Virus record (IMG/VR): IMGVR_UViG_3300010373_000003
Coordinates: 28,896-92,895 of that record
Source of the DNA: a virus
Strand: one strand, 5' to 3'
DNA: 64,000 nt
Within the stretch, counting starts at the first letter, position 1. The number at the start of each line of letters is the position of its first letter. A program made the translations under genes and the position numbers. The notes under the pieces are model-generated. The model did not search any database, was not told where the DNA came from, and saw only the letters and a program-made list of their open reading frames with translations. Shown in pieces: positions 6,550-56,518 of the stretch.

Positions 6550-7339
6550 GTTAGACAATGACTTTAATATAGATCATGGTGATTGGATACCTCGTGTTGG
6601 TGCGTGGATTATAGATGCTATGGGTCAGCTAAATGTTCTTCGTAAGAAACGTAGTAAAATAAAGCTAGATGTTCATAACTGTATAGCTTATTCTAATTGT
6701 CCTATTAATAGTCCTAATCTTATAGTTACTGATTCTAATGGTTGCCCAATTGTCAAACATAAATCTAATGCTAGTGGTTGTTGTTCTTCCTCTACGGGGG
6801 AGGTAACAAAGCTAGGTGATGTAACTCCCTCAACGGTAGATGCTATCTATAATCCTAATGCTGCTTATGTCCCAGATCATACTGTAGCTGAAACTGTCAA
6901 TGGTAGTAATAAACCTCCTAGATATAATATTGTTAACTATGATAACTCTGGAGGACAACCTAGAAATTATGTTCTATTAGATGATAACAAACTTGAATTA
7001 AACTTTAATACAAGTTGTGTTTATGTTGAAACTGATGTAGTTGAAACTGTATGGAGTAAAACCTATGAATGCGATATTCCTGTTGTTCCTAATGTTGGTA
7101 TTCTTATAGAAGCTATTGGTTTTTATTGTATGTATAAAATGTTAACTCGTGGATATAAACATCCTGTATTTAATCTTAATGCTAGTCAATATGGAACTAA
7201 TCCTTATTATGAGTGGAAGACTCTAAAACCTGAAGCTAAGAGAGCTGTTACTATTGATGCTCAGGGTAATATACTGGTTACTGATGGAGGTCTATTTAAA
7301 AGTTCATTCTTTATCACTACATTCCCCAATAGTAAATAG
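6506..7339 (+). CDS. tail tubular/ring protein
   Basis: Size, ...IPVVPN..LIEAIGFYCMYKML segment, and position directly before the stabilisation protein. Confidence 0.6.
   Translation: MLNNTSISVEHIIAKLDNDFNIDHGDWIPRVGAWIIDAMGQLNVLRKKRSKIKLDVHNCIAYSNCPINSPNLIVTDSNGCPIVKHKSNASGCCSSSTGEVTKLGDVTPSTVDAIYNPNAAYVPDHTVAETVNGSNKPPRYNIVNYDNSGGQPRNYVLLDDNKLELNFNTSCVYVETDVVETVWSKTYECDIPVVPNVGILIEAIGFYCMYKMLTRGYKHPVFNLNASQYGTNPYYEWKTLKPEAKRAVTIDAQGNILVTDGGLFKSSFFITTFPNSK
6788..6803 (+). repeat. dispersed motif copy 1 (TCCTCTACGGGGGAGG)
   Basis: Exact core; encodes SSTGE in the tail tubular gene. Confidence 0.95.
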
Positions 7340-7462
7340 CCATTAATATCTCATATAATAGCAATTTAAAGCTGTATACTGGACGATATTAATTTAACTG
7401 TATAATAACGTATATCGACTTTAGATAGTCGCTTATATGAACTTAAAATAAGATGTAAGCAA

Positions 7463-10400
7463 ATGAGCGTTAATACAAAACTTAATCTCAATAAACATCC
7501 AAAAGATAATGATAATTTATCTCTTGTTAATGCTCAGGCTGTAAAGATTAGCCACGATGGGAGTTGTATTACTAGTGAAGATTCTATTAAAGAGAATTCT
7601 TTTATTCATAATTATCTTAGTGCTTTTTATGGTACTAACCCTGTTATTGGTTATAAGATAGTAGGTATTATACCTTGTAATAACGAATTAGTTATTGTAG
7701 TTAAACCTTCTAATACTGTTGATGATGCTGATATATTTAGATATCAAGAACCTATCAATGACAATATTGAAAAGATGTATTGTGCTTATGGAGGATTAGG
7801 TAGTCCTAATAGATTTAAATATCAAGGAGGTCTTATTAAAGGAGCTTTTACTTATAACGTAGAGAATAGTTTAGTTATAGCTATTAGTGAGTATGGTAAT
7901 TCTAATATTAGAATACCTTTACGTACTATTAATCTTGGTAACTCTGACGACCCTACTGTTTATAATGATAAGGATTTATCTAATTCTAAATTATACATAT
8001 CTCCTGAAGTTAGACTACCTAGTGTTAATAATTTAGATTATACCGCAGGTAGTGCTTATAAAGGATGGTACTATATGTTTATTCGTTATAAGATTAATAG
8101 TGTTGATTATACTCAATGGTATTCTATTGGTCCTCCTATTTATATTGATACTTTAGAACAATATCAGATTATAAGGTATCCTTTTGGTAGAGATACTAAG
8201 TTTGCAGCTAGTGCATTAAATGATATAGTTAGTCCTGCTTGGCCAGATGATGGTTATGGAGCAGGTGCTTCTGATTATTTTAGTAATAGTTCTGATATAG
8301 CTAAAGAGACATTTAAAGTAGATTTATATTTTAATAAGAATATTGATTATACTAAATATCAAATAGGAGTAATTTGTGCTTCTAAGTCTTATACTAAAGC
8401 TTTTAGAACTGCTGATATTTACTTAGATAAAAACTATAATGAAGGTTTTAATGTTCGTATACAAAAGTATGTTCTTGATAATAAGTCTTTAATTGAGTAT
8501 AATGTTAGTAGTTTTATTACTGACAATGGTAATTACTTTAATAGTAAGAATGTAATTAATTATAAGAATAGATTATATATTAGTAACTATCTAGAAGATA
8601 ATGCTAATAATGATGATATACCTCAAAGTATTATTGATTCTATTAATGTTAATTTATATACTTCTTATGTAAGAGATTATGGTTTAGTATATGATACAGC
8701 TCTAATAGTAAATTGGGTTACTGGAGCTAATCAGTATGATACTTATAAGTTTACTGAAATACCTCTAGCTAGATTTCTAAACATATCAGAAGAAACTATT
8801 GTTACTATTAGTGCTTCTGGACATACTACTAAAATAAGTAAAGCTGGTCAATTTTATATTACTTCTGGTAATAGTGTTCCCGGATATGCTTATATTCAAT
8901 TAAGAGAACCGGGTCCACTTGGTAGTGTTTCTGTTACTAATTATGGAGTTCAACCTTATAGTGATTATATTTATTTAGCTATTGCTGATGTTAATAATAA
9001 TCCTCAAAGTAATTTTACATTTGATCCTGTTAGGTCTGCTATTAATGGCGGAATGATGTATACTAATACTAATATTGATTTTGATAGTCGTAAGAAACAA
9101 AGTTGTTTAATACCGGGTGAAGTTTATAATTTTAATATACATTTTACTAATAAGTATAGTGGTGCTACTAACGGTTATAGAATACCAAATAATACTAAAT
9201 GGATTGTAAATGGAGAACCTAATAGAGAAATAATACCTATTTCATTTAATCTTAGAGTTAATAGTGAAACTGTTACATATTATGCTGCTATGGATGTTGA
9301 TTCTAATGTAGCAAGAGAAGACTTTACTGTTAATGAAAGATATTCTATTAATGTAAATGGTATAAGGTTTTTTAAACAATATAATACATTTGGTACTAGT
9401 CCTACTTTAAGTAGTGAGGTTACTAGTCCTTCTGATTTACAAAGTTGTGTTGCTGCTTTTAAAGAGTTTTTCTCTTCTTATAATAGTGATAAGTTTTCTA
9501 CTACTAAATGGTATCAAGTATCATATGGACCGGGAGGAGATAAGTTTCATTTATTTATTAATAATAATGGAGATAGACTATTTAAGATTCCTACTATTGA
9601 ATCGTTTACTGGAGCATGGGATGGTTTCCCTGATGAAGTAGCACCTTTCAAACAATACAATCTTCATACTCTAATGAGAGCTTCTTTTGATAATATAGAA
9701 ATACCTGAAGGTTATGACGGATTCTATATATCTTATGAGAAGTTTGAGTCACAAGCTAGAGCTACTGGACTACTTACTCGTAATGATTTCCGTACTCAGG
9801 ATTGGATTGTTAAAGGAGGTAATACTGTACAACTAGGTACTAGAAACTCTGCTAAGTCTGATAAGATGTTCTTTTATAGCAGTACTTATGATATTTCTGA
9901 TACTATTAAATTAGATTATAGTATAATGAGAATTGAAGCTATTAATCCTTTTAAGAAAGAAGATATACCTGAATGGGATTATTTTCAAAGGAATAATACT
10001 TTTAACTTTCTTCATGATATGAATAAGCCTCAGGTTGCTTCTTATTTTGAGGATGTTCAAAGAACTTATGCTATGCCTGAATATAAGATAGCTGTAGCTG
10101 ATAGTGTTGCTGATGATAGAATGGGTGTAGGTACGGCTTTACAAATAAAGGATTCTTATAATCTATTTGCTAGTTATGTTACTAGTGCTGGTATACATGA
10201 TAGATTAAAAGTATATAGAGTTACTCTATTGAATACTACTCGTGACATTTATATGTCTGATAGTAAAACTCTTATTAGACTAGGTGATGTTGTTTATAGG
10301 TCTGAAGGTGCTCCTACTAATTATAAGTATTCACAATATATTAATTCTGGATATAATGGACATTATACTTATGATGGTATTCCTATTTATGAGAATGCAG

Positions 10401-11923
10401 GAGTTGTATTTAACACTGCTAATAATAGAGTTTTTAGAATTAATAATCATGATCATTATTATAAGTTTGAGGTTCCAAATGATAAACCTCATACTTATCA
10501 GAATGATGTTCCTTTTCTAGCTTATTTACAATTACCTATATGTACTGATGTATTCTTTGAAAGTAAGTCTTATAAGAATAGTCCTGTAGGATTTATGTCT
10601 TTAGTTAAAGGTTCAGATGAGAACTCTAATAAGTTTGCTAAAGGTACTATGGTTACTCCTGTTAATAGTATTGATTTATTTGAAAATAGACAAGGTTCTG
10701 CTGATCAGTTTAATCCTAAGACTTATGTTAACTTTAGAGAAGATTTAGTTTCTGTTGAACAATTTGATAAGACTATTCGTAGATCTAATGTTATACAGAA
10801 TGAAAGTAGAGTTAATGGTTGGAGAACTTTCCCTATTGAAGGTTATAAAAATATAACTGAGAATAAAGGAAAGATTACTAATATAATTGGAATAGGTACT
10901 GTTCTACTTGCACATACTGAACATAGTATGTTTATGTTTGATACTGATAATACTCTTAAGACTGAAGGTAAAGATATTCAATTATTACAACCTGATGCTT
11001 TTGAAGTATCGTACAATGAAGTGTTTACTTCTGATAAAGGTTTTGGTGGTTTACAAGATGATAAATCATATATTGTTAATGACTTTGGTTATATATTTTA
11101 TAGTGATGATACTAATCGTATTTATCGGTTTGACGATAAGCAGTTAGATAACATGGACGAAGATATAATACAATGGCTTAAAAAATATAAACCTTTTAAT
11201 GTTAGGATGGCTAACGATAAAGAAAATAATCGTATACTTATGAAATTCGATTATCTTGTTACTGGACTAACTAGAAGTACTGTTATTAGTTATAATTATA
11301 ATGAGAAGAATTTTGTATCTCAACATCCTTATTACTTTGACGAAGCTTTTAATACTAAAGTTGGTTTATACTTACAATGCACTAATGATCATAATGGATG
11401 CTCTTTACATAATTTTGATTATAAAGGAGATGTTTATGGTAGATATGATAATATCAAAGGTACATTAGGTCAATCAATTGTTGCTCATTCTAAACTTAGT
11501 TTTATTATTAATGATTCTTATAGTATTGTTAAGTTCTTAGAGTATATTACTTATAAACTTACTAAGTATGCCGAGTATTCCGGTACTGATTTTACTAACT
11601 TGCCCGTAGAGGAATACAAGACTCCTTATGCTGGATATACACTTGCTGTATATAATAATAATGTTAATACTGGTGTATTAAATATAACTACTGACATTGA
11701 AGCAAACAAAAACATGTTTGATGTTATTGACAAACCTTATTGGGATTTAGGAGTTTGGAACTTTAGTTATCTTCGTAATAGAATAAGTGAACTAAATAAT
11801 GGAGTTAGTGATGATAATATAACTAGATTATTTGGTAACTATTTCATTGTTGAATTTGTATTTGATAACGAGGACGGTCGTAAGATTGATTTTGAAGAAT
11901 TAAATTATAATGTTTCTGAGTAA
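7463..11923 (+). CDS. tail stabilisation / muzzle (nozzle) protein
   Basis: 1486 aa, beta-rich; N-terminal LNLNKHPKD..SLVNA, YKNRLYISNY, IPGEVYNFNIHF, KGKITNI motifs typical of crAss stabilisation proteins; synteny. Confidence 0.7.
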   Translation: MSVNTKLNLNKHPKDNDNLSLVNAQAVKISHDGSCITSEDSIKENSFIHNYLSAFYGTNPVIGYKIVGIIPCNNELVIVVKPSNTVDDADIFRYQEPINDNIEKMYCAYGGLGSPNRFKYQGGLIKGAFTYNVENSLVIAISEYGNSNIRIPLRTINLGNSDDPTVYNDKDLSNSKLYISPEVRLPSVNNLDYTAGSAYKGWYYMFIRYKINSVDYTQWYSIGPPIYIDTLEQYQIIRYPFGRDTKFAASALNDIVSPAWPDDGYGAGASDYFSNSSDIAKETFKVDLYFNKNIDYTKYQIGVICASKSYTKAFRTADIYLDKNYNEGFNVRIQKYVLDNKSLIEYNVSSFITDNGNYFNSKNVINYKNRLYISNYLEDNANNDDIPQSIIDSINVNLYTSYVRDYGLVYDTALIVNWVTGANQYDTYKFTEIPLARFLNISEETIVTISASGHTTKISKAGQFYITSGNSVPGYAYIQLREPGPLGSVSVTNYGVQPYSDYIYLAIADVNNNPQSNFTFDPVRSAINGGMMYTNTNIDFDSRKKQSCLIPGEVYNFNIHFTNKYSGATNGYRIPNNTKWIVNGEPNREIIPISFNLRVNSETVTYYAAMDVDSNVAREDFTVNERYSINVNGIRFFKQYNTFGTSPTLSSEVTSPSDLQSCVAAFKEFFSSYNSDKFSTTKWYQVSYGPGGDKFHLFINNNGDRLFKIPTIESFTGAWDGFPDEVAPFKQYNLHTLMRASFDNIEIPEGYDGFYISYEKFESQARATGLLTRNDFRTQDWIVKGGNTVQLGTRNSAKSDKMFFYSSTYDISDTIKLDYSIMRIEAINPFKKEDIPEWDYFQRNNTFNFLHDMNKPQVASYFEDVQRTYAMPEYKIAVADSVADDRMGVGTALQIKDSYNLFASYVTSAGIHDRLKVYRVTLLNTTRDIYMSDSKTLIRLGDVVYRSEGAPTNYKYSQYINSGYNGHYTYDGIPIYENAGVVFNTANNRVFRINNHDHYYKFEVPNDKPHTYQNDVPFLAYLQLPICTDVFFESKSYKNSPVGFMSLVKGSDENSNKFAKGTMVTPVNSIDLFENRQGSADQFNPKTYVNFREDLVSVEQFDKTIRRSNVIQNESRVNGWRTFPIEGYKNITENKGKITNIIGIGTVLLAHTEHSMFMFDTDNTLKTEGKDIQLLQPDAFEVSYNEVFTSDKGFGGLQDDKSYIVNDFGYIFYSDDTNRIYRFDDKQLDNMDEDIIQWLKKYKPFNVRMANDKENNRILMKFDYLVTGLTRSTVISYNYNEKNFVSQHPYYFDEAFNTKVGLYLQCTNDHNGCSLHNFDYKGDVYGRYDNIKGTLGQSIVAHSKLSFIINDSYSIVKFLEYITYKLTKYAEYSGTDFTNLPVEEYKTPYAGYTLAVYNNNVNTGVLNITTDIEANKNMFDVIDKPYWDLGVWNFSYLRNRISELNNGVSDDNITRLFGNYFIVEFVFDNEDGRKIDFEELNYNVSE
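11599..11613 (-). repeat. dispersed motif copy 2 (TCCTCTACGGGCAAG)
   Basis: Exact core; antisense, encodes LPVEE. Confidence 0.95.
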
Positions 11924-11932
11924 GATATAGAT

Positions 11933-16663: not shown

Positions 16664-19600
16664 ATGGATATTAATGACTTTTTAAATAACGGAGTTACGG
16701 TTAAGAACCCTAATTATAAGAAACCCACTAAGAGAGATCCTAGTGGGTCTCCTCGTTTTATACAATCTGGTGATTACAATGCAGCTGTTGATCGTGATAG
16801 TCGTATTGGTGGATTTCTTGCTGAAAATAGTTATGATCTAACAGGTCTTAACAATGACGAGAATAAGTATGCTGATTATGATGTCCGTATTAACCCAGTT
16901 AATACTAAAGATGAACTTGATCAACAACGTGCTAAGAACCAATCTGCTTGGGAACAAACAGGTAGACTTGTTACGCAAGCTGTAGGTAATGAAATAGTTC
17001 TAGGTACTGCTTTAGGATTATCCAATCTTGTAGATATGGGTGTTAATATTGGTAAAGAGGCTGGAAAAGATGATTATACTAATCCTTTTAGTACTTTCTT
17101 AGAAGGTAAACAAGATGAGATTAGAAAAGCTTTTGAGATATACCAAGAGAATCCTAATGAGACTTTTCAAGTTGGAGACTTTGGATGGTGGGCAGGTAAT
17201 GCTGTAAGTGTTGCTTCTACATTATCTATGCTTATACCTTCAATGGCAGTTACTAAAGGTTTAGGTGCAGCTGGTAAATTTGCTAAACTTGAAAGACTTA
17301 GTACTGGTATTGCTAAAGCAGCTAGTGGTGTAGGTCTAACAAAGAATACTGCTACATTAGCTAGAGCTATTAACTCTGGTGCTGAAATAGGTACCGCAGC
17401 GTTACTTAGTAGAACAATGGAAGGATATCTTGAAGCTAGAGGTGTTTATAAGGAAACTTATGATAAATCTTTAGGTAAACTTGAATCTATGACTGTTGAT
17501 GAGAAAGCTAAGCTTTTTAAGAATAATCCTCAGTTTGTTGGAATGTCTAATGAAGAAATGGCTAGTAATATGTCTAGTTTTTCTGCTGATGAAACCTTTA
17601 AGAATGATTATGCAATGTTACTATTTGATATTGCTCAATTTAAAGCTTTAGGTTCTATGTGGAAAGGTGTTGCTAATAAAGCAGTTAACTCTACTCTAAG
17701 AACAGCTAATAGAAATGCTATTGCTGGACTTGCTGATGATGGAGCAGCTGCTATTGGAAACATGGGATTCTTTGCTAAACGTGCTGAGATTATTAAACAT
17801 GCTATAAAGAATCCTATGAGTAGTCTTACAGCTATTCAACTTAGTGAAGGTCTTGAAGAAGGTTATCAAGGAGTTCAAACAGAGAAAGGTAAAGAGATTG
17901 CTGAAAAGATGCTTGATCCTAATTTTAATGCTAGAACTCTTGAAAGTTATCTTAAAGATGGTGCTATATGGGAACAAGCATTTTGGGGAGTAGTTGGAGG
18001 AATGGCTTTCCAATCTATAGGTACTGGTGTTGGTAATTTAGCTACAGCTGTTAAAGGTAAAGTTAATAAACGTACTATGTCTGAAGAAGATTATGCTCTT
18101 TCTCAAATGACTGATGAAAAGATCAGAGAACAAGAGATTGTAGGTCGTCAGGCTCGTATGCAAGACTTTACAGAGAGTATGCAGCTTCTTAATAATGGTA
18201 AGAATCCTTTTGGTTATAAGATTGATCCTGATACTAAACAACCTATTCTAGCAGACGGTAGTAAAGTCAATGAAGATGTTAGTCAAGAAGAAGCTGAATT
18301 GCTTAAGACTCAACTTACTAATGATTTTGTTACTAATATGGTATTAGATGCTACTGATAAAGGTAATTACGATCTATTCAAAGAATATGTTACTGATCAG
18401 AACTTTGATAAGTTCTTTCAAGATGCTGGACTAGAGTCTAACTCTGGTGATAAATCTTTTAGTAGAATGTTAGTTGATAAGATGGATCAAACATATGAAG
18501 AATACAATGGTGCTCTTTATGATGTTATGAATTCTATTAGTGTAGAGAATGAAAGTGTGGCTAAGATTGTGGCACGAAGTATTGCTAGAAGAAAACTACA
18601 AGTATCAGACTTATATAATAGTTCTGATGATCTAGCTAATCAAATAGCAACTAACGCAGATACTACTGATTATATAGATTATGAAGAGAATCAAAGAGTT
18701 AAATATGTAAAAGATCGTATAGCTGAAATAGATAAAAAAGAACAAGGTCTTCAAGAAATGTTAACTAATAAACAAATTAGTTCTCAAGCTGTAGATCAAA
18801 TTATTAAAGAAAATAATATTAGACGTAATCAACTTCTAGCATTTGCTTCTACTGGTAATATGTTTGGTAACCCTGATGTTATAAGCAATATCTTAAGTTC
18901 TAATATTAATGATGCTAATACTGGTGAATTCTTAGCAGAGTTTAATAAGTTCTTAGCAACTATTGATCAAGATGTTAAACCCGGTACTCCTAAGAAGTCT
19001 GTTCAAGATATTGTTAAAAAGAAGATTGAAGTAGATGATCATTTAGATTATATTGAGAAAACATTACCTACTACACAATCTAACTATCAAACAGAATATG
19101 ATGATGTTGCTAGAAATGTAGATAGACTTACTGTTGAAAGATATGATAAAGCTGTAGACATTGTAGGAGAATATATAGAATCTCAACCAGATCTAGATAC
19201 AGCTCATAACAATGTTATGACTAATAATGTTCCTGCTAATATAAAGGAACAATTAGATATACTTAAACTTGGACATCATAGTACTTCTAAATATACTAGT
19301 CAGATTAATTCTATATTCAGAGAAGTTAACAATGATAGAACAGCAGCTGCTGCTGAAGCTAGAAATGTTAATGTTGATAATACTGTTACTAATGATACTA
19401 CAGCTGAAAATGATATACTTGATATAGATGGTGTAGTTGCTGAAACTGACAATAGAGAATCTGTCACTGAGTCTTCCTCTACGGGGGAGGTTATACAATC
19501 AGATGTATCAAAACCGGCTGCTGTTGAAGAAGTAGTTAATCCTGAAACATTTATTGCTCCTTTTGACATAGTTGAAGAAGTTGCTTCTTTAGATAAAGCT

Positions 19601-22600
19601 ACTGAAAGTGTTATCAATGATCAAACTAATGATTTTATATTAGACAATGATGCAAGAGCTGTAGGTTTAGCAAGTAGTATTACTTTTAATCTATTTAAAA
19701 CTTCTCGTAATCTATTTGATAATCTAGAAGGTAAAGATGTTAATAGTTCTGAATTTAATAATATTGTTGATATAGTTGCTGATGATTTATTTACACAAGG
19801 TGTATCTAGAGGTTATACTAGACAAGCTGCTGTAGATGGTATTAGAATGGCAATGAATATGATACATCGTAGACTTAGTTCTAAGAATATTAGTGGTGCT
19901 GATATGTTTAAAGTATTAGCTGATCAGCTTGCTAATAAACAAAGAGTTGAAGTTGATAGTGAAGGTAAAGCTTCTACTACTACTCTTATTCCTGATAGTG
20001 AATTTAATCAAGTTATTGATCAGTTCATTGATAATTATATTCAAAATAGAGGAGTATATACTGTTAAAGGATTTAAGACTATTATTAATGTTGAAGATTT
20101 GTTTAGAGAACTATTAAATAATGATGGTATTACTTATGAGCAAGCTAAACATGTATTCTTTAATATAGCTGATTATATCAGAGCAAATAATCCTAAGTAT
20201 ATATTTATTAATAAGACTGATCTTAATAAGAATCTTAAGACTCCTAGTACTTTTTTTAATAATCTTATTAATAATAAATCAACTGTTGAAACAGTAGATA
20301 GTTATATGCATATAGCTGCTCCTTCTAATAAACCTGAAGGTTATGATAAAGCTGTAAATGAAGCTATTAATGGAGAACCAGTTGTTATTAGTTATTTTGA
20401 AGGAGAACGAGGTACTAGTAATAACTCTATTTCTATTAAAAGAAATGGTATTGAGATTGGTTATCTTGGTTCTGTTCAACCTAATCCTATTAATACTGGT
20501 TATAAATTAAAGAGACAGAATCAAGGTTTTGTTTATGATCTTGTTAATAACAATGGTAACATTGAAAGTAATTTAGATAAACTATTTATACCTCTTATTA
20601 ATAGAGAAACTACTAATTATTCTTATTTAATGGATATTGCTTATAAGCAATTTGCTTATGAAAGTGCTATTAAAAATGGATCTTCTAGTCAAGATATTAC
20701 TTCTGATGAAGTGAGAGACATTGTACATAATGCTATGATTAAATCATTAGTTGCTTCAGGAGATATTAAAATACCTGCTGATAAGATTACTGATAAGATG
20801 AAGGCTAAGTATATACTTAATCAAATTAATAACATTATCTTTTATGATAATGCTGCGATTACTACTCCTTTAATATTAGAGAGTTATGCTTATTGGAAGT
20901 CTTCTACTTTTAATAATTATGTTAATACTCATAAGATACAACAAGGTCTTGATACTAACAAAAAGATTAATACTAAGCTTGTAAATGTTGCTACTGGTAA
21001 AGTATTATTAGATAATACTAATCATAATATTTCTGATATAGGTTTTACTTATGAACAAAACCCTATTATGATAGTAGATGCTAATGGTAATATTATCAAT
21101 GAAAAAGCTAATACTAGTTATAGCAATGTAGCTGGATTTGAAGTAGGCACTATGGGTATGTTGATTACTGATAATCCTAGTGCTCCTATTATAGCTTTAT
21201 TTACAGAATCTAATAATGTTTCTAGTAATAAAGAACTTGCTAATAGAGTATATTCTGAACTTACAGATTTACTTACAGGTTTTCAAAATAGAGAAGTTAG
21301 TTTTGATAAACTAGCTACTTCATTAGGAGATATGTTTAGTGGTCCGGGTATTAGAAGTAATAATCTATTTAGTGGTTATAGTGTTATTAAAACTAATGAT
21401 AGAATAGCTCTTAATATACAAGGTCGTAAAGGAGAGTATAATCTTATTGTTCATAAGTTTGAAAAAGGTTCTAATACAGAAGGAACTGGTATTACTCATA
21501 TACCTAATGGTGATAAGAGTAAAGCTAATAGTTCTGTTACTACTAGTAAATCTTTTAATAATGCTATTGCTAAAGAGATTGTTTCTAATCTTACTTTTAA
21601 TAAAACATTCTATGCTATTAACAATAAGAATGTTGATAATGATAAATCTAATCAATATCTGTATAAAGAAGGAGGTAAACTAATAATTGAAATAGGAGGT
21701 AAGAAAGATAGTTATAATAGTTTTGGTCAGTTTGTTTTGACTAATAATGCTTTTAAGACTAATCAAGGTAAAAATAAAGATGGTGGTTTCTTTGACACAA
21801 CTGATGCTGTTAAGTCACTTTACATCAATACTGCAATCATTACCTCGCCCGTAGAGGAAACACCATTGACAGATCGTAATAGAACTGCTTCTGATGTTAT
21901 TAAATCAGCTACTAAGACTGAGAGTGTTAATACTTCTGAAATACTAAGTTTAGCAGGAGTTGAAGAAGATAAGATTGCTGTTCTTACTGGTACTAATCAG
22001 TTTGGTATAGAACTTATTCCTAAGGAATCGTACTTTGATAATCGTGCTACTAAAGCTGAAGCTTATTATAGTAAAGGTAAAATGTACTTTACTAATAAAG
22101 GTGCTAATAATATTAGAAGAAGTCCTAATAACCTTATGAGACTTCTTATTCATGAAAATCTTCATGCTAAGTTTGAAGAACAAGGTTTGTTTCAACAAGC
22201 TGGTATTGTAGATGATCTTATGAATACTTATAATAGTTTTATTGAAGCTGTTAATAATGATACTACAAGTGCTGAAGTTAAAGTTATTAAAAATTGGATT
22301 GAAACTAATAAATTTAATCCTATTGATTATATTAGTACTTTATCTGTCGAACAACAAAGAGCATGGATTAATCGTAGTGATGCTGATAAAGCTGCTCAAT
22401 TTGCTGAAGAATGGTTAGTTGAAAGTCTTACTCAACCTTCTATTATTAGATATCTTAATAATACTATTTATACTGGAGGAGATGTTTCTGTTGAAGGAAT
22501 TGATAATAGTGCTAAGACTATATGGCAACGTATTATAGATGTTCTATTAAAATTATTTGGTAGAAATAGTGGAAATATAAAAAATAATACTATATTAGCA

Positions 22601-26100: not shown

Positions 26101-29100
26101 AAAGTAATACTCATAATCTAATAGATCGTGCTCACTATAATGGTGATAGTGTTGTAAAAGATGGAGTACTTACTGGTAATTTCTTTAACTTTATTAGACT
26201 ATTTGAAACACAAGGTTATAAAGCTAATGAAGAGATTAAGAATGCTTTCTTCCTCTACGGGGGAGATACAGCTAACGGTATTGATCCACTGCTCGTTAAG
26301 AATAAGAAAGGTGATCTAACTCTTAATATTAATAGAAAAGATCTTATTGCTATTAATAATAATCATATAGAGCTTAGTATATCTGATAATAACTTAGAAG
26401 TTATTGATTCTGTTGTTGAGAATTGGCTTAATAATTATTATAATGAAGTACTAGATAAAACTTCTCAGTTTAATACTATTATTGAAGATAGATATTCTAA
26501 TAATGATATTGTTGACTATGCTGTTAACAATGCTATTATGGAAATGAACTTTGATGATGTGTTTGAAGGTGATAGTAAGTTCTATAAAGGACCTCAGGAT
26601 TTCCTTAAGAGAGCAAAAGAAGTTCAAGCTGCTGGTAAAGCTTATACTGGTTTTAATATTAATGAAGCTATTGGTGGTCCAGTTCATCCTATTAAAGATG
26701 CAAGTGGTGGTGAGATTCCTATAATGGTTAATGGAGTTGAAGTTGCTAAGGCTAGAAATGGTTTTAAAGGTGTTACTATTTATAATACCGTTAGACCTTC
26801 TCAAAGTGCTGGTCAAATAAAACAAGAACTTGTAGGTATACTTACTCCTAGTGTTGGTAAGACTGAAGCTAATCGTATTGCTACTGAAATATCTCAAGGT
26901 TATTTTGATTCTACTAAAGTCAATGATGCTCAATCCTATATTACTCTTGATGAGTTTATAGCTAGACGTCATGCAGATGGTACATTGAATGATTATCAAG
27001 ATTTACTTGCTCAATTAACTGATGATAAAATCAGTGTTGGAGATATGAATCTTAAAGGTATTAATGCTCGTATTCAAGTACAGAAGAACTTCTATTTTGA
27101 TAAACAGTTTGATGATAATACTGGAACCTTTTATCCTAGACAGATTAAGAATGCTGAATTTGTTCTTATTCCTAAGTTGATTAAAGGTACTGATCTTGAA
27201 ACTCTTTATAACATAATGAAAGCTAATGGTGTTGACCAAGTTAATACTGTTGAAGCTTCTAAAGCTGCTAAAAAGAATATACTTACTTTTTGGGATAATC
27301 AAGGTGTTGCTAATGCTGAAGCGTTTGATGCTAGTCTTAAAGCTGATAACAATATAGCTATTGAAGACTACTACTATCAGTATCTTTATAAACAACAAGA
27401 TGTTGCTGATCATATGGTTAATGAGAAGAACAAAGCTGGTATTCAAATCATGAAGAAAATCATTGATAATGCTAATGCTGAAGTTCAAGGAGATATTGAT
27501 AATTTCTTTAATAGCTATGTTGCTAATATTAAAGATGACTTTAATATGCTTCTTAATCGTATGGGTTGGAGAGTTGAAAATGGTTCTTTAGTTGATAGTA
27601 GTGGTAAGACTAATGCTGATGGTAAGAATGTACTTCAATTTGAAGATTTTTATAAGAAAGCACGTGTTGAGGCTCAACGTCTTGGTATGGATTCTAACTT
27701 TATAGAATATCTTACTCCTGATCAGTTTGGTTCTCCTGTTATGCCTAACTATATGAACAATGTCTCTTCTAAGTTAGAAAGTATTGCTCAAAGTATATTT
27801 AATAATGGTGTTACTAGACAGACTCTTCCTGGATGGCATGCTGCTCAGGTTACTAGTGTTGGACATGGTGTTCCATCATTAGGAGAAGATGGTGTATGGA
27901 GAACTCTTAAGTATCACCCTCAAGTTACTAGAGAAGATGGTACAGTAGTTCAAGAAGCTTATGCTGAAGTTATGCTTCCTAGATGGAGTACTTTAATTCC
28001 TAAAGATTATGATATTTCTAAGTTAGAATCTGAAGGTATTGATATTCATTTAGGTTATCGTATTCCTACTGAAGGTAAACAATCTATTAGTAATCTAAAA
28101 GTTGTTGCTTTCTTAGATGAGGTTTATGGTTCTACTATTATGGTTCCTGATGAATGGGTAACTCAAACAGGTAGTGACTTTGACGTTGATAGTGTTTATG
28201 GTATTTCTCATGAAATATATAAAGACAGAGAGGGTACTATTAAGAAAGTACAGTTTGATAACTCTACAGAAGTTAAAGATGTTGAACGTAGATATGTTAA
28301 TTATATTAATGGAGCTATAGAACATCGTGTAGATAAAGATATTATACCTGATGAGTTTATAACTGATAAAGTTAATGAAGCTAGAGATCAAATTAAAGAC
28401 TTAGATATTGTTAGAAAAGAATCTAAATATCTTGGTGAATTGATTTCTAATCATGGTAGTATTTATAGACAACTTCCTACTGAGGTTCAAGATCAAGTTA
28501 AATCTATTAATAGAAGATTTAGAACTGGTAATATATATGATAGATACAATGCTTTAGCTGCTACATTTGAAGTACTATCTTCTCAGGAAACTGGAGAACT
28601 TAAAGATGTTTATGAAGAATTTGGTTCTTATAGTGAGGCTATTGCTAATGCTTATGAATATATTAAAAGTATAGATACTGATTCTATTCCTAAGTTTAAT
28701 AAGTCTGAAGTTATTAAAGGTATATTTGAAAATGCTCGTATTGAGTATTTAAATAAAGTTAAGAAAGCTGCTAAAGCTTCTAATCTTGTTACTTATGAAG
28801 AGTTTGCTAATTGGTCTATAGAAGATCAGAATAGTCGTAAGGCTCGTAATAATAGGATATTAGATAGTATGATTAATGTTATGAATAATAGTAATTCTCG
28901 TGAAGAGAACTATTCTCGTAGTAATTTTGATGATCTATCTAATGCTATGAAGAAAATGAATGCTCTTCGTGGTGCTTCCTCTATTGTTCGTAGTGCTTAT
29001 AATCCTTTAGATCAAGTTGATTTTATGGAGAATGCTATGAGTGGTGCTACTCTTAAAGCTTTCTCTGTTACTAGAGATACTTTTAATTCTGTTAATAACT

Positions 29101-37296: not shown

Positions 37297-37317
37297 AATA
37301 AGGTATTAGCAATGTGT

Positions 37318-37412
37318 CTTCCTCTACGGGGGAGGTACAGCTCTCTATTACTAGAGGTTCAATCAAGACGGTTAAGACGATTAAGATCATATAACCTTGC
37401 CCGTAGAGGAAG
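37318..37412. repeat. inverted pair of dispersed motif copies 7 and 8, intergenic
   Basis: CTTCCTCTACGGGGGAGGT (37318-36) and ACCTTGCCCGTAGAGGAAG (37394-412): 19-bp inverted repeats with 2 mismatches. Confidence 0.95.
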
Positions 37413-37436
37413 TACTCATATAATATCAATAACTAT

Positions 37437-46780: not shown

Positions 46781-47533
46781 TTAATAACATTTAAGCATAT
46801 GATTAGCAAAACCAACAGCTTTATAAAATAGCTGCATTTTAGTACCATTATTCTGAATAGGAAAAGTAGATTTAAAATCAATATCTTCACTATCATGTTT
46901 AGCAACTTGATCAGTACTTTCTCTTCTGATCTCAATGTCTCCCCCGTAGAGGATATGCTTTACTATAGCGTTGTTCTCATTCCTGTATCTTACATCAGGG
47001 ATAATACAAAGACCAGTAGTTTCAGCAATATCAGCAGCTCTATACATAGTAGAATTAATCCAAAGATTATTACCAAGTAGTTTTCTACCAATTTCAGTAC
47101 CAAAATATTGCATAAGAGTACGAAGCCTAATAACAGGAGTTTTACCCTTTCTTTCAATATCTTCAATAATATAATTTAAATTATATTTAACAGTAAGAGA
47201 TTCTATAGTAATACCTACATATTCACTAAAACTAGCTTCAGCTTCTGTAAGAAACCTACGCTGACTAAATGAATACCACTCTACATCTTTCTTATCTCTA
47301 TCGTCAAAATACTTACGAGGAATATTATAAATAATAGACAAACAATCCTTCATAGGATCAGCGAAATGAGTAATACGATGTTCATTAGTTAAATCCCATT
47401 TAACACGATGAGTTAACCAATCTGAATAATTAGCTTTAGCTACACCTTTATAAAAGATATAATTAAGCATAGAAGCAAAAGTATCTTTACCTGAATTAAG
47501 TTGTCCAGATATACCAACAATATAACTTTTCAT
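46781..47533 (-). CDS. deoxynucleoside monophosphate kinase
   Basis: GISGQLNSGKDT P-loop, FADPMK, R.LMQYFGTEIGR, IPDVRY.NE, H.SE. Confidence 0.88.
   Translation of the reverse strand: MKSYIVGISGQLNSGKDTFASMLNYIFYKGVAKANYSDWLTHRVKWDLTNEHRITHFADPMKDCLSIIYNIPRKYFDDRDKKDVEWYSFSQRRFLTEAEASFSEYVGITIESLTVKYNLNYIIEDIERKGKTPVIRLRTLMQYFGTEIGRKLLGNNLWINSTMYRAADIAETTGLCIIPDVRYRNENNAIVKHILYGGDIEIRRESTDQVAKHDSEDIDFKSTFPIQNNGTKMQLFYKAVGFANHMLKCY
46939..46953 (-). repeat. dispersed motif copy 9 (TCCTCTACGGGGGAG)
   Basis: Exact core; encodes ILYGG in the dNMP kinase. Confidence 0.95.
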
Positions 47534-48377: not shown

Positions 48378-49598
48378 TTAATCCTCCAGTATAATAACAG
48401 TTTTAATGTGAAAAGGAACTTGTTCAACACCGCTTCTTTCTCCATACTCAACAAGAGCTTTTCTGTACATGTATTTATCTTTATTAGCAATAACACTACG
48501 TTGATAATCAAATGATCCATTAACACTAGCTTTAAAAGTAGCATTATTAATATCATTCTTAAGTACTAATAAAGGAAGATCTCTCTTTTCATCTTCAGGT
48601 ACAATATCAACTATAGTAAACTTACCATCAGTCATAGCTTTAAACTTCCACATAGCAGAATTACGTTTACCAAACTGATATTCATCATTAGGATTACGAC
48701 CAACAATGCCTTCAAATCCTAATTTAATAAACTTATTTCTAAGACTTCTAGCAGAACTATCTGAAGTACAAAGATAATCAGGAACTCTAACTAATCTTTC
48801 AGTATTATTAGAGTGGCTACCTTCTTTATTTAAATTAATAGCACAATATCCTATATGTTTATCAAGAGTAGATAGTCTAGCATTTTGAGTCATATTAGCA
48901 ACAGCTATATCATAACACCAGAACTGTAAAAGTTTATTCTTAGGATCTTTAGGGTCTTTAACAAGATGATTTATCTCATTAACAGCATGACCATAAAGAT
49001 ATACTTCTCCATCAAGAATATAATCTTCATTTATCATTAAGTTCAATAAATCAATAGGTAATACTTTAAGTAAATATTCTTCAAGATCACCTAGACTATC
49101 CCAATAGTTACCTTCACGAGATTGAAAGGTTAAAGCAATAGGTTTAAATAAATCACCTTCGTTATTCTTAGCACCAATACCACATCTAAGACCATTAATC
49201 TTAGGTTGAACTATATAAGAACTTTGTTTATTGAATATCTTATTATTCTTATTATCATACAGTTTAGCAAGCATATGAAGCATAGCACCAGTATGACTTT
49301 GTCTATCATAAGGCAGATAAGTATCAAGATAAGCTATTACTTGTGTTTCCTCTACGGGCAAGGTATTGCTATCAGCAACGTCAGCAAGTAACATATATCC
49401 ACTCTTACGTTTAGTATTAACCCGAGACTTTAATTCATCTTCAAGAGTTCTCTTAGTATGGATAATTTCAGAACTAATAGTTTTCCCTAATATCCCATAA
49501 TATAATTCTAAACAATAAGCAGAATTATTAACTCTAGCATACCATACAGTAGGTTGACCTGCATTATTTCTCCTATAAAGAGCTTTATTATAATCCAT
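48378..49598 (-). CDS. lig: ATP-dependent DNA ligase
   Basis: QPKINGLRC (motif I), LDGEVY, FWCYD, GFEGIVGR, MWKFK. Confidence 0.9.
   Translation of the reverse strand: MDYNKALYRRNNAGQPTVWYARVNNSAYCLELYYGILGKTISSEIIHTKRTLEDELKSRVNTKRKSGYMLLADVADSNTLPVEETQVIAYLDTYLPYDRQSHTGAMLHMLAKLYDNKNNKIFNKQSSYIVQPKINGLRCGIGAKNNEGDLFKPIALTFQSREGNYWDSLGDLEEYLLKVLPIDLLNLMINEDYILDGEVYLYGHAVNEINHLVKDPKDPKNKLLQFWCYDIAVANMTQNARLSTLDKHIGYCAINLNKEGSHSNNTERLVRVPDYLCTSDSSARSLRNKFIKLGFEGIVGRNPNDEYQFGKRNSAMWKFKAMTDGKFTIVDIVPEDEKRDLPLLVLKNDINNATFKASVNGSFDYQRSVIANKDKYMYRKALVEYGERSGVEQVPFHIKTVIILED
49348..49363 (+). repeat. dispersed motif copy 10 (TCCTCTACGGGCAAGG)
   Basis: Exact core; encodes LPVEE in the ligase. Confidence 0.95.
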
Positions 49599-50473: not shown

Positions 50474-50897
50474 TATAAACCATCACCTTATCAGGCTTAC
50501 CAAGAAGGCAATGATTATACTTTAACCAAGCAACAGGATCATTACAAGGTCCCCATTTAATAACCTTTTCTAATTTACCCATCTCATAATTATCAACTAG
50601 ACCAAATAGACCTTCTTCATAATTAAAATTAGAATAAATCAATCCACGATTATTAGTTTCTACAAGACCATATCTCTTAATAGAATCTATATCAGAAGCT
50701 TTATTAAAATCTAAATCTCCATAGAAATATATAGCAGACTTATCACTATACTTATCTAGTCTATCTTCTTCTTTTTGAGTAATAGCTCGCATATACACAT
50801 TAAGACCTCCTTTATTAGGACTATCAGAATGGACTAATATTACCTTCTTTCTTATCCCTAATAAGTTTACTGTATCGCCTAACAAAACTTGTTTCAT
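50436..50897 (-). CDS. hypothetical protein
   Basis: 153-aa ORF overlapping the primase end. Confidence 0.55.
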   Translation of the reverse strand: MKQVLLGDTVNLLGIRKKVILVHSDSPNKGGLNVYMRAITQKEEDRLDKYSDKSAIYFYGDLDFNKASDIDSIKRYGLVETNNRGLIYSNFNYEEGLFGLVDNYEMGKLEKVIKWGPCNDPVAWLKYNHCLLGKPDKVMVYNDNYHDFFIGRR

Positions 50898-52023
50898 ATT
50901 CTTTTATATTAGTAGTTATATTAATAATAGGATCAACGATCCCTTTAATTCCTTTTTTTTCTCTCCACTCGGAGAAGTCTTTTGCACCATCTTTAACAGG
51001 TATAAGAACAGGCATTATAATAAAGTTGTTACGAAGCCATATAGTCTGCATCTTTCCAACTCTATCATTATCCATAAGAGATAGCATAATACCTCCTTTT
51101 TTTAGTTTACCATGTAACCAATCATATTCACTCTGCCTAAGTTTATAAGTTTCATGAGGTAGATTGATAACGCCGATGTTGACTTTAATGGCTCCCCCGT
51201 AGAGGAAGTTAATCTCTTTAATAGCTGCTTTTATAGCAACTCTATCTTTAGTAGACTTAGTAATAACAATTATATCATACTCATCTTGATTCAATGTATA
51301 AATACCTTCAAGATGATTACAATTAGTTATAAATCTAGTAAAACCTTTTTCACGTTTAGGAAAATAAAGTTTAATATTATAAAGTCCATTACGATCTTGA
51401 CCAAGTAAATAAGCATAACAAGGGTCAGTAGGATTATAATAATATTTAGGATCAGGATTAACATTTCTATTAATATAGTACTGATCTATAGGATATATAA
51501 ATTCAATATTTAACAAATGAGGACTAACACCTATACGTTTCCAATCATTAATATCATTATTATTCCATTCTCGAATAACCAATTCAATATTAGGTTTAGT
51601 ATTACGTAAATTAACAATAGCAGTGTTTATATCTGTAATAAGATTAATATCTTTTTCTTGTCCATAAAATATATCTTTAAACATAAACGTGATATGTCTA
51701 AGAACTTTAAGGAAATCTTCTTTATTGGATATATTAATAGGTCTATTATAAGTAGTAGTCATAACTAATGCTACAAGATCAAAACAGTCACCCCAGAAAT
51801 ATCCAGCAAAGTCTTTAAATTTAAGTCTATCCTGAGTATATTTAAACCCACAAGTAGGATTAATATCATATCTAATAGGAGAATGTATAAAGTCTCCAGT
51901 ATCAATACAATGTTGAACTATAGCATCAGAAAGATTTAAATAAGTACTAAAAATACTAACTTGACTTACTTTACTAAGAATATATTTTTTATTAAGAGTT
52001 CCAGTATTAATATTTCTAGCCAT
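50824..52023 (-). CDS. DnaG-like (TOPRIM) primase
   Basis: SPIR.D.NPTC.F, FKDFAG..GDCF, IVITKS.KD, LMDND..G, KDFSE. Confidence 0.8.
   Translation of the reverse strand: MARNINTGTLNKKYILSKVSQVSIFSTYLNLSDAIVQHCIDTGDFIHSPIRYDINPTCGFKYTQDRLKFKDFAGYFWGDCFDLVALVMTTTYNRPINISNKEDFLKVLRHITFMFKDIFYGQEKDINLITDINTAIVNLRNTKPNIELVIREWNNNDINDWKRIGVSPHLLNIEFIYPIDQYYINRNVNPDPKYYYNPTDPCYAYLLGQDRNGLYNIKLYFPKREKGFTRFITNCNHLEGIYTLNQDEYDIIVITKSTKDRVAIKAAIKEINFLYGGAIKVNIGVINLPHETYKLRQSEYDWLHGKLKKGGIMLSLMDNDRVGKMQTIWLRNNFIIMPVLIPVKDGAKDFSEWREKKGIKGIVDPIINITTNIKEYETSFVRRYSKLIRDKKEGNISPF
51132..51146 (-). repeat. dispersed motif copy 11 (TCCTCTACGGGGGAG)
   Basis: Exact core; encodes FLYGG in the primase. Confidence 0.95.
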
Positions 52024-52042
52024 TGGCAATAATTAGAGGATA

Positions 52043-53185: not shown

Positions 53186-54013
53186 TTAGTCTTCTTGAGA
53201 CTCCTCAGCAACAGCACCTACACGAGCAGGAACTTTATCTGAATAATCACCAAGTACTAAAGCTTTAACAGTAACTTCTTCGTAACCATTAGACATAACA
53301 ACATCTTGAATGTTATCAAGATCAATTTCAAATACACGGTTTAAAGCAGTAGCTTCTTCACCCATATCAGCTTTCAATTGTTTCCACACGTTAGAATCAG
53401 TGAAAGTAAGAGAAGTACCCGGGCCAGTAACACCACCTGGGTTAGCTAATTTAGAACCTTTGAATTTAGGTAAATCCTTAGGAATAACAAACGCTGTTAA
53501 AATATCAGCTTGTTCTTCAGGAGTAATACCTTCACGAGATAAAGCAGCTTTAACTTCTTCGTTATCGCTAGCTAATGCTCCTTCAAGCATAGCTTCAAAC
53601 TGTTGTGCAACAAATTTAAGTTTATCACCTTTAGATAGACGCTCAGCAGTAGTTTTAGCTAAACCTTTAGCGTCAAATTCTTTAACACCTTTAGCAATAG
53701 CCCAGCTATCAAATTCTCTATGGATAGCAATTAATGCTTCAGGAGAATCAATTTCTAAACCAGCTTCTTCACAGAAAGCAACAAGCGAAGGATCTTTTTC
53801 ACGAATAGCAGCATCAAGTTGATCAATATTAGATAAGAACATGATGTTATCACCATGACCAATACCTAATACTTTACTAACAATAGAAGTTAATCTAAAG
53901 TTACCTTCAGTAGATACAGCAATTACTTGAGGTTCAGAAGTAGTGTTACGTTGACCAGCAGTTACAGCACTAAATCCAAAAGATAATCCGGCAGTTGATT
54001 TTACAGTTTTCAT
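53186..54013 (-). CDS. conserved hypothetical replication-module protein
   Basis: 275 aa, acidic tail, own terminator. Confidence 0.6.
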   Translation of the reverse strand: MKTVKSTAGLSFGFSAVTAGQRNTTSEPQVIAVSTEGNFRLTSIVSKVLGIGHGDNIMFLSNIDQLDAAIREKDPSLVAFCEEAGLEIDSPEALIAIHREFDSWAIAKGVKEFDAKGLAKTTAERLSKGDKLKFVAQQFEAMLEGALASDNEEVKAALSREGITPEEQADILTAFVIPKDLPKFKGSKLANPGGVTGPGTSLTFTDSNVWKQLKADMGEEATALNRVFEIDLDNIQDVVMSNGYEEVTVKALVLGDYSDKVPARVGAVAEESQED

Positions 54014-54070
54014 AAATTGTTTTTTAAATTATTAAATAATATTATTTTTATTTGTATAAAGAGAATGAGG

Positions 54071-55051: not shown

Positions 55052-55083
55052 ATTTCAAAGTACTAGATATTTGTTATCTTTAA

Positions 55084-55115
55084 CAATAGTACACTTTATT
55101 ATTAACAGTACCAAA
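55084..55115 (-). promoter_or_regulatory. candidate Bacteroidota -33/-7 promoter
   Basis: On the - strand: TTTG, 20-bp spacer, TACTATTG (one mismatch to TAnnTTTG), upstream of the RecT-like gene. Confidence 0.45.
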
Positions 55116-55132
55116 TATTTTCACTGTTATTT

Positions 55133-56518
55133 TTATAGTACTACTGCATCATTATCATTATTGTAATCAATTTCGTCCTCATCATCAGGTATAACTTTAA
55201 TCAATGATGACTCCTTTTGATTACTAAGGTGTTTGTTCTCAATTGTACCTCTACAATAAACCTTATAATTAATCGTTGGTACACTATTAAATGTAACATC
55301 AGTAAAACGCGTCTTAAAAGCAATAATGTCATCTACAAAAGGTGAGGTGAAAATCACTAAATCAATAGCTGTTTTCAGCTTCACATTAGAACTACTTTTG
55401 ATCGACAATACATTGACTTGCTTTGAGTTAAACGCTGTCAGATTCATTGTACTGATCGACTGGGCGCCTACTATTTTAGGTTGACCTTTACTAGCACCAC
55501 TCTTAACAAGAACAGGTTCATTAGTAGCACTATCAATAAGTATAGAGCTTTCTATATTATCATGATAGTCAGCACATTTAAGATCAGTAAATTCATTTAG
55601 GTATTTAGTAACCTTAGAAGCAAATTCTCCACGTTTAGACACAATAAGTATTTGCATTGTAGAATGAAAAGTACATATAGCAAGTATACTATGTAGCTTT
55701 GCTTCATTATCAGTAACTAGATCTCTTCTCTGTTTAGTAATAGTAAAGAAATTATTAGCTCTCTCAAATAGATTATTAGGATTATAAATATCATCAATCT
55801 TCTTATTCCATTCAATAGAAGTATTAAGTTCAGAACTCCAACCATTATTCGCAGCTATTTCTTCACGAAATTGAACAGCACTAATGTTTAGTTTAGAATC
55901 ACCATATTTACATTTATCAATGATACTAATATCACCAAATATAGAAACAGATGTAGCAATATATTCATTATACTTTTCGTATAACTCATGATCTTCAGCC
56001 GATAGACTGATTGCAATCCTGCGTTCCTCTACGGGGGAGTAAATGTTATCTGTACGAACAGAATTGTTAGATACAGTAACATGGATGTTAGGTAATATAC
56101 TCCTAACAGAAGTAATATAATTAGAATCCATTATATTCTTAGTAAATATAGAAAGTATAAACTTTCCTTGTCTACTTAAGAAATTAATAAGATCAAGATT
56201 ATCATTAAGACCTACTGCAATGATTAGTTTATAATCATATAAGTAAGAAGTTTTAACATAATCAGCACTTAATATTGTAGTATTATATCCAGCATTAGGT
56301 TTACTAGCTAAAGCATTAATAATAGCAGTTCTAGTTTTAAATGAATCTACAACTATGAATACTTTCACACCGTGAGACTTAATATAAAACTGATCTATAA
56401 GTTTAATAATTAGATCTGCAAAATCAATAGGATGAAAACAATAAACACTTGCTCTACCTCTATTAGCTTGAAATCCATTAATAACTTCTTTAACATACTT
56501 ATCTTGATTAGTTTTCAT
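55133..56518 (-). CDS. SF2/SNF2 helicase-like protein, degenerate motifs
   Basis: Helicase-like layout (Q..V..F..N.G, C-terminal ILIVS..FA, F...VNVL, YCRGTIE) without a recognisable Walker A or DExx. Confidence 0.6.
   Translation of the reverse strand: MKTNQDKYVKEVINGFQANRGRASVYCFHPIDFADLIIKLIDQFYIKSHGVKVFIVVDSFKTRTAIINALASKPNAGYNTTILSADYVKTSYLYDYKLIIAVGLNDNLDLINFLSRQGKFILSIFTKNIMDSNYITSVRSILPNIHVTVSNNSVRTDNIYSPVEERRIAISLSAEDHELYEKYNEYIATSVSIFGDISIIDKCKYGDSKLNISAVQFREEIAANNGWSSELNTSIEWNKKIDDIYNPNNLFERANNFFTITKQRRDLVTDNEAKLHSILAICTFHSTMQILIVSKRGEFASKVTKYLNEFTDLKCADYHDNIESSILIDSATNEPVLVKSGASKGQPKIVGAQSISTMNLTAFNSKQVNVLSIKSSSNVKLKTAIDLVIFTSPFVDDIIAFKTRFTDVTFNSVPTINYKVYCRGTIENKHLSNQKESSLIKVIPDDEDEIDYNNDNDAVVL
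56025..56039 (+). repeat. dispersed motif copy 12 (TCCTCTACGGGGGAG)
   Basis: Exact core; encodes SPVEE in the SF2-like gene. Confidence 0.95.

Follow-up and report, generated by a model that had tools for sequence, protein, structure and literature searches.

The 64,000-nucleotide stretch analysed here (called the window; record IMGVR_UViG_3300010373_000003) comprises bases 28896-92895 of a complete 92,895-bp crAss-like phage genome with a G+C content of 30%, and carries a short asymmetric word, TCCTCTACGGG, on both of its strands and mostly within genes. This word is the local spelling of a cis-acting DNA signal found throughout the Intestiviridae. Purifying selection on the DNA keeps it against codon preference, in any frame which the gene permits, and each strand bears its own array of copies, more even than chance and ignoring the array on the opposite strand. 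We infer that its reader is a factor of DNA metabolism which the phage encodes and which acts on a single strand at a time; the phage's own primase is our tentative first candidate.

A pattern search of the window found 11 exact copies of TCCTCTACGGG and one copy with a single mismatch. A sequence-only reading of the window, made before this analysis, had listed the same 12 copies, and its coordinates are right except for one: the copy placed at 51136 on the minus strand has its true core at 51196-51206 (-), the earlier value being a typing error. Dinucleotide shuffles of the window contained on average 0.17 matches to TCCTCTACGGG, with a maximum of two. The whole 92,895-bp genome has 18 copies, 10 on the plus strand and 8 on the minus strand. 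All of the CTACGGG heptamers in the genome (17/17) fall within a full copy of the word, so that the set is sharply bounded and has no halo of decayed copies. The 11-mer which the sequence-only reading had described is present, but the true word is longer. The 18 genome copies yield the consensus cTTCCTCTACGGGgGAGgTA.t...aTCag and a word length of approximately 18-30 nt, with an invariant TC at +24/+25 as a distal 3' element (cTTCCTCTACGGGgGAGgTA...TC). The C at +25 is found in 18/18 genome copies and is not general in the copies of relatives. The mismatch copy, TCCTCTACAGG at 31503 (-), has the spelling ACAGGG, which is normal in some relatives, and CTACAGGG is the dialect of L234 and Rudgehvirus.

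Within genes the word is accommodated in different ways. Ten of the 12 window copies lie in open reading frames (ORFs), as had been claimed, and the copies at 37320 (+) and 37400 (-) are intergenic. The three registers named in the sequence-only reading are the ones that we find, SSTGE with four copies, (F/I)LYGG with three and antisense xPVEE with 7/7, and the frames not used by the copies would encode a TAG stop or Arg-rich peptides. The codons of the word are among the rarest in the genome, and those which had been called scarce are so: ACG and CTC each make up 1.6% of their synonymous families, TCC 1.8%, and CCC and GGG 3.2% each. The sequence-only reading had proposed a count against a codon-preserving shuffle, and we ran one in which synonymous codons were shuffled within each gene, keeping the proteins and the per-gene codon usage, in 1000 runs. 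This null produced a mean of 0.05 and a maximum of two coding-sequence copies of TCCTCTACGGG, compared with the 12 observed.

Relatives were gathered blind to the motif, 80 loci via an alignment of PolB and 44 via the terminase. In nearly all of these loci TACGGG, preceded by a pyrimidine tract, recurs with unchanged strand and relative position. The spelling varies by lineage, with ccctc, tcctc, tcctt, tcttc and ctttc on the 5' side and ggagta, caagct, gggtct and gaa on the 3' side, and some lineages spell the core ACAGGG or CACGGG. The site in the SNF2-like ATPase gene (56025) persists down to 28% protein identity, and the wobble bases of its CCC GTA GAG GAA codons are fixed. Depending on the lineage, the site in the primase gene is translated as SLYGG, PLRGE or SFTGD, which are three reading frames of a constant DNA word. 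At the ATPase, primase and ligase sites the wobble identity is 0.86-0.93 in the motif codons versus 0.61-0.69 in the flanks; the flanks of orthologous sites diverge while the wobble bases of the motif stay fixed. The site in the deoxynucleoside monophosphate (dNMP) kinase gene, which is lost in most relatives, has a wobble identity of 0.49 in the motif codons versus 0.64 in the flanks.

The nearest relative obtained, L331, has 77% DNA identity to this genome and keeps both terminase-proximal sites with CAAG replacing GGAG, so positions 11-14 of the word are soft. An inverted copy at an orthologous place was never found among the seven named Intestiviridae members and the PolB-selected relatives. 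Judged by these sequence comparisons, the sites are orthologous and old, with some turnover. Free synonymous decay in close relatives, which the sequence-only reading had named as an observation that would speak against its proposal, does not occur. Its claim that the nucleic acid, and not the protein, is under selection is supported by the codon-preserving null, the fixed wobble bases and the change of frame at the primase site, and so is its broader view that the copies are dispersed sites forming an array for a sequence-specific factor.

The distribution of the signal was studied in a panel of 20 named genomes (8 Intestiviridae, one Crevaviridae and 11 others) with the loose pattern YYYYYACRGG and with reversed words as controls. 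There are 20-38 copies in 8/8 Intestiviridae, including crAssphage, crAss002 and Rudgehvirus, where the controls give 0-4. The Crevaviridae, Suoliviridae, Steigviridae (crAss001, phi14:2) and Flavobacterium phage FpV4 have 3-15 copies with controls of 2-8; the word is at background in the Crevaviridae, Suoliviridae and Steigviridae, as it is in Bacteroidales genomes. The sequence-only reading was correct that the word is real in this genome, but it is a trait of the whole Intestiviridae and not of this genome alone. The Intestiviridae consensus is T-C-Y-T-Y-T-A-C-R-G-G-G-G-R, followed by lineage-specific 3' bases. ACRGGGG is the core of 197/197 aligned family sites, a figure which is partly set by the search pattern, the free seventh position being G in 75%. 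Prototype crAssphage (BK010471.1) has two spellings, CCTCTACGGGG with 16 copies and CCTCCACGGGG with 15 copies, which are interleaved and occur on both strands. In a scan of IMG/VR with a 15-mer, dozens of low-GC contigs were found with several copies each, all of which encode homologues of this phage's proteins. A viral-contig scan with the primase protein as the sole query recovered no relatives.

The Crevaviridae genome of the panel, cr127_1 (NC_055886.1), lacks the Intestiviridae word and has approximately 10 dispersed elements of approximately 35 nt, TAATGGCCACAAGGGCGAGAGGTGTTCCGAAAT, on both strands. Examples are at 11342-11385 and in loci L423-L427, and some form close opposite-strand pairs. 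The TAATGGCCACAAGGGCGAGAGGTGTTCCGAAAT element may be the sister family's analogue of the signal.

A literature search for the exact word on both strands returned only unrelated primer sequences. We found no paper that describes the word or such a signal in crAss-like phages, and a preprint on crAssphage as a phage-plasmid is silent on the word. The signal thus looks to be undescribed in the searchable literature.

The arrangement of the copies differs between neighbours on the same strand and neighbours on opposite strands. Same-strand gaps in this genome are 4-21 kb and never below 4 kb, and their coefficient of variation (CV) is 0.43 on the plus strand (p = 0.005) and 0.47 on the minus strand (p = 0.03). 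The two strands of crAssphage have CVs of 0.43 (p = 0.002) and 0.31 (p < 0.0001). With a looser pattern, which adds about three chance matches per genome, the per-strand regularity has p < 0.005 in 6/8 family genomes. Opposite-strand neighbours can be 80 bp apart, as at 37320 (+) and 37400 (-), and are 26-120 bp apart in relatives, mostly in intergenic regions. The copies alternate between strands in 14/18 cases (p = 0.03), which is modest support, the per-strand regularity being stronger. With respect to the local genes 10 copies are sense and 8 antisense, so there is no polarity with transcription, and the split between plus and minus strand is similar across 8/8 family genomes. The window copies are listed in Table 1 together with the genes of two replication enzymes that are discussed below.

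Table 1. Window copies of the word, with their place in genes and their conservation, and the primase and ligase genes. Positions are those of the window; pLDDT, predicted local distance difference test.
Feature	Position	Strand	Core	Gene context	Conservation or annotation
Copy	6786..6815	+	6788-6798	Sense in 277-aa tail gene, SSTGE	Kept in 3/7 Intestiviridae panel genomes
Copy, 3' variant CAAG	11586..11615	-	11603-11613	Antisense in 1486-aa gene, LPVEE	Kept in cr3_1 only
Copy	19473..19502	+	19475-19485	Sense in 2112-aa gene, SSTGE	
Copy, 3' variant CGAG	21831..21860	-	21848-21858	Antisense in 2112-aa gene, SPVEE	
Copy	26249..26278	+	26251-26261	Sense in 4532-aa virion RNA polymerase gene, FLYGG	Kept in 4/5 alignable panel genomes
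One-mismatch copy TCCTCTACAGG	31486..31515	-	31503-31513	Antisense in RNA polymerase gene, SPVEE	
Intergenic copy	37318..37347	+	37320-37330	Left arm of close inverted pair	
Intergenic copy	37383..37412	-	37400-37410	Right arm of inverted pair	
Copy	46926..46955	-	46943-46953	Sense in dNMP kinase gene, ILYGG	Kept in 14/49 PolB-selected relatives
Copy, CAAG	49346..49375	+	49348-49358	Antisense in ATP-dependent DNA ligase gene, LPVEE	Kept in 46/68 relatives
Copy	51179..51208	-	51196-51206	Sense in primase gene, FLYGG	Kept in 68/70 relatives, 7/7 panel genomes
Copy	56023..56052	+	56025-56035	Antisense in SNF2-like ATPase gene, SPVEE	Kept in 76/78 relatives, 6/7 panel genomes
ATP-dependent DNA ligase gene	48378..49598	-			PF01068
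Primase gene	50824..52029	-		DnaG/T7 gp4-type, zinc-binding and TOPRIM RNA-polymerase domains	phrog_12622; model pLDDT 83

The intergenic inverted pair lies between two minus-strand genes and folds (37297-37430) as a hairpin or cruciform of approximately 95 nt, with -47.4 kcal/mol and z = -6.1; it could be a terminator or a cruciform. Similar close opposite-strand pairs are found in other intergenic regions of relatives.

The gene content of the phage is crAss-like, with a 4532-aa virion RNA polymerase, a crAss tail ring protein, terminase, portal and capsid. Its replication block encodes an SF1 helicase, UDG, PolB, SNF2-like ATPase, RecT-like protein, SSB, primase, ATP-dependent ligase and dNMP kinase, in the gene order of prototype crAssphage. 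The structure model of the primase was matched by Foldseek to the Aquifex primase (2au3, E 1.8e-7), the T7 gp4 primase (1nui) and T4 gp61 (8dvf). Inspection of the primase alignment consensus by eye showed a conserved DnaG-like, zinc-finger-like N-terminal motif and the DxD motif of TOPRIM. In the panel, homologues of PolB and of the primase with 24-30% identity are also encoded by crAss families without the word, so neither of them marks the signal. Among the genes confined to the Intestiviridae are the RecT-like gene and, next to it, the gene of a 275-aa protein.

That 275-aa protein (53186-54013, -) is encoded between the SSB and RecT-like genes and was detected in all Intestiviridae checked and nowhere else. 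Its model has a pLDDT of 85 and a predicted template modelling (pTM) score of 0.70. It has no Pfam, PHROG or NCBIfam match, and neither Foldseek nor a wide VIA search matched it to a solved fold (best Z 3.9).

Besides the word, several features of the genome and its relatives were noted. In L029, L276, L277, L278, L296, L303 and L312 the PolB match spans approximately 3.4 kb and not 2.3 kb, corresponding to an insert of approximately 1 kb; the L029 match breaks at residue 506/507 and resumes 1059 bp further on. The insert resembles an intron, intein or homing-endonuclease insertion. The early/replication block encodes a Tad3-like protein of the Type I Thoeris inhibitor family (45566-46309, -; E 7e-26) and a DUF932 protein (42946-43980, -; E 1.5e-42). 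A 422-aa protein (38715-39983, -) has no Pfam match but aligns over two stretches with phrog_85, the PHROG of thymidylate synthase; it may be a divergent or duplicated nucleotide-modifying enzyme. An Rfam scan gave no match at the word sites, and the sole Rfam/ARAGORN match genome-wide is a tRNA-Arg (anticodon TCT) at genome positions 1694-1766 (-), outside the window (L231). The ends of the genome contig are an exact 123-bp repeat of each other, which we read as an assembly overlap that is uninformative on the physical genome ends.

Sites which are autonomous on each strand, evenly spaced and strongly selected fit two readings, primase starts and programmed nicks, and we rank the starts first. 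The copies possibly serve, and we propose this tentatively, as start sites reserved for the DnaG/T7-type primase that the phage encodes, like the ssi signals of plasmids, with the primase of Table 1 as the candidate reader of the signal. The enzyme would start on the central pyrimidine-pyrimidine-purine (YYR) triplet, for which the present genome has CTA, crAss002 and cr8_1 have TTA, and half of the crAssphage copies have CCA. The pyrimidine tract would then be copied into a purine-rich RNA primer, and the zinc-binding domain would hold the 3' CGGGG... flank, which is not copied. Any strand that turned single-stranded in replication would have an assured start every few kb. The T/C difference between the two crAssphage spellings falls on the first base of this putative start triplet.

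Two things are expected of primase sites and their phage, a YYR triplet with a 3' flank and an encoded zinc-binding primase, and both are present. DnaG-type primases start on YYR triplets, for example d(CTA) and d(TTA), whose 3' base is cryptic, and make primers that begin with a purine (PMC2978363). The strong sites of the T7 primase need a 10-nt 3' flank with a distal dinucleotide, and there are approximately 26 of them in 14 clusters which are 1-6 kb apart (PMC12839067). The number of sites in this genome is comparable to that of the strong T7 sites, and a distal 3' element is common to both.

Several observations weigh against primase starts. Distant homologues of the primase (24-27% identity) are found in the Suoliviridae and in crAss001, both of which lack the word, so the enzyme family alone does not predict the signal. 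The sites of known primases are short and degenerate and we know of none that needs an exact 12-18-mer, a requirement that seems more typical of a specific binding protein or of a nuclease. Furthermore, per-strand gaps of 4-21 kb are long for Okazaki fragments, and the presumed lagging-strand template has no excess of sites, with 10 versus 8 if forks follow transcription.

The second reading is that in replicating or packaged DNA the motif strand is cut by a phage nickase at or close to each copy, as happens in T5, phiKMV-like phages and tf/Rembedalsseter, and that the phage ligase reseals the cuts after injection. We regard it as rather doubtful. The arrays, each autonomous on its strand, would suit a strand-specific cut, and a bipartite site with an invariant distal TC would suit an enzyme whose cut falls some way from where it binds. 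Of published precedents the nick-associated word WACTRTGAC comes closest, but known nick motifs of this kind lie on one strand, as in T5 and tf/Rembedalsseter, and are clustered, whereas here the copies are even on both strands; moreover, T5 mutants without nicks are viable (PMC11780129), whereas the sites described here are under strong and very long selection. A Pfam search of approximately 60 of the 89 ORFs gave no HNH, GIY-YIG or other nickase domain, many small ORFs being unannotated, and the only nuclease found is a lambda-Exo-like exonuclease. The ATP-dependent ligase is encoded by 8/8 Intestiviridae and by the one Crevaviridae genome, and it is absent from the 11 other panel genomes, all of which lack the word. 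This co-occurrence speaks for nicks, but it rests on one or two evolutionary events and is thus weak evidence, and the Crevaviridae have the ligase without the word. The enzyme would suit either the sealing of nicks or the joining of Okazaki fragments.

A third reading takes the copies as duplex-DNA sites for a phage protein that organises the genome, through looping, condensation, packaging or the pacing of ejection, in which the asymmetry of the word gives the bound protein a direction. The long bipartite footprint of approximately 18-30 bp is in keeping with such a protein, and the lineage-specific flanks are as expected from coevolution between a protein and its sites. The close intergenic inverted pairs could seat a dimer, and several proteins found only in the Intestiviridae have no assigned function, including the well-folded 275-aa protein of the replication module. 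A reader of duplex DNA, however, predicts that any two sites avoid each other, and such avoidance is seen between same-strand copies only. No DNA-binding domain was identified. We consider an organising protein unlikely. IHF-like proteins were considered as readers of the word and rejected, since the genes annotated in this way encode tail ring proteins (PF25702).

It is very unlikely that the copies are strand-read transcription signals, such as stop or start sites for a virion RNA polymerase that prefers single-stranded templates. The homologous polymerase of phi14:2, gp66, transcribes single-stranded DNA efficiently and has no known promoter motif (10.1101/2020.03.07.982082), which together with the strand specificity of the signal is the attraction of this reading. 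Half of the copies are antisense to long blocks of same-strand genes, deep within genes. The polymerase is universal in the Crassvirales, but the word is found in one family only, and in crAss-like phages the middle and late genes are served by promoters of the host type.

We give hardly any weight to a host-read word (Chi-like or like repetitive extragenic palindromic (REP) elements) copied by the phage, or to remnants of a mobile mini-element or an RNA hairpin, although the motif is asymmetric like Chi and one inverted pair resembles a miniature inverted-repeat element. Bacteroidales were tested as a proxy for the host. In 201 Bacteroidales genomes TCCTCTACGGGG has 27 matches compared with 40 for the reversed control, and in most of 26 genomes the 8-mer core CTACGGGG has fewer matches than its reversed control. 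The sequence-only reading had listed Chi/KOPS-like polar signals among its options, which these counts and the lack of orientation polarity contradict. A 15-mer scan of the genomes of 185,579 species found at least 120 stretches; among the matches listed there are at most two per stretch, mostly in unrelated phyla, and 19 matching bacterial stretches that were compared had no similarity to this phage's proteins.

A mobile element was rejected because the sites are orthologous: at three of four sites 46-76 of 68-78 relatives have the copy at an identical codon position, the dNMP kinase site having 14/49. The cUNCGg hairpin suggested from the sequence also falls away, as 6/18 copies pair over only 2 bp and whole lineages, for example with ccctcTACGGGcaagct in L239, cannot form the stem. 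Across 767 family sites 40% pair over 3 bp or fewer, and 32% pair over at least 6 bp versus 20% with shuffled partners, a slight excess. The probability that remains belongs to some explanation outside those listed here.

CrAssphage and the other members of its family rank with the most abundant viruses of the human gut, and their replication and DNA handling are almost unknown. A signal that stays at the same places in essential genes through the history of the family marks a step which these phages cannot do without. It is conceivable, if doubtful, that a conserved two-strand lattice of obligatory synthesis starts or deliberate cuts is hard-wired in the Intestiviridae, the family to which the commonest phage of the human gut belongs. 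If so, replication or packaging would depend on approximately 20-40 fixed strand-specific positions per genome, and these positions would have constrained the evolution of essential genes. We know of no phage with a genome-wide, positionally conserved lattice on two strands. In practice, the word is a simple sequence signature for spotting Intestiviridae contigs, and it supplies experimental handles in the form of assay oligonucleotides, exact coordinates and recodable sites.

Several known systems resemble the signal in part. Like Chi (RecBCD/AddAB) and KOPS (FtsK orienting polar sequences), it is an asymmetric, dispersed and over-represented word that runs through genes. Chi and KOPS, however, are 5-8 nt long, occur in large numbers on the host chromosome and have a polarity relative to replication, whereas the word described here is 12-18 nt long, not enriched in the sampled Bacteroidales and without polarity.

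The Pseudomonas phages Rembedalsseter and tf carry 13 copies of WACTRTGAC / TACTRTGMC, a motif which is shared by 61 related phages, lies in and outside genes and coincides exactly with nicks (PMC11780129). Both motifs are short, asymmetric, over-represented words conserved across a phage group with little nucleotide similarity, and both occur in genes, sense or antisense, as well as between them. The tf/Rembedalsseter motif is confined to one strand and one side of the genome, and its nicks were seen directly, whereas the longer word described here (12-18+ nt) forms even arrays on both strands.

The sites of the T7 gp4 primase, 5'-(G/T)2GTC-3' with a 10-nt 3' flank, and the DnaG triplets d(CTA), d(TTA) and d(CTG) are used by primases of the same fold as that of this phage, and a YYR triplet stands at the centre of the word. 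In the T7 sites the 3' flank matters and includes a distal dinucleotide, comparable to the invariant distal TC of this genome. However, the T7 and DnaG sites are short and degenerate, and selection at synonymous positions or at orthologous places is not known for them, whereas here an exact 11-14-mer is fixed, with per-strand gaps of 4-21 kb.

The ssiA and ssiB sites of plasmid RSF1010 are long, strand-specific and sequence-specific, lie inverted with one on each strand, and are read by the plasmid primase RepB'. They form a single origin pair, need a hairpin and are used by a primase of the archaeo-eukaryotic type, whereas the Intestiviridae have 18-38 dispersed sites, require no hairpin and encode a DnaG-type primase. 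The inverted pairing of sites on opposite strands is common to both, as in the intergenic copies at 37320 (+) and 37400 (-).

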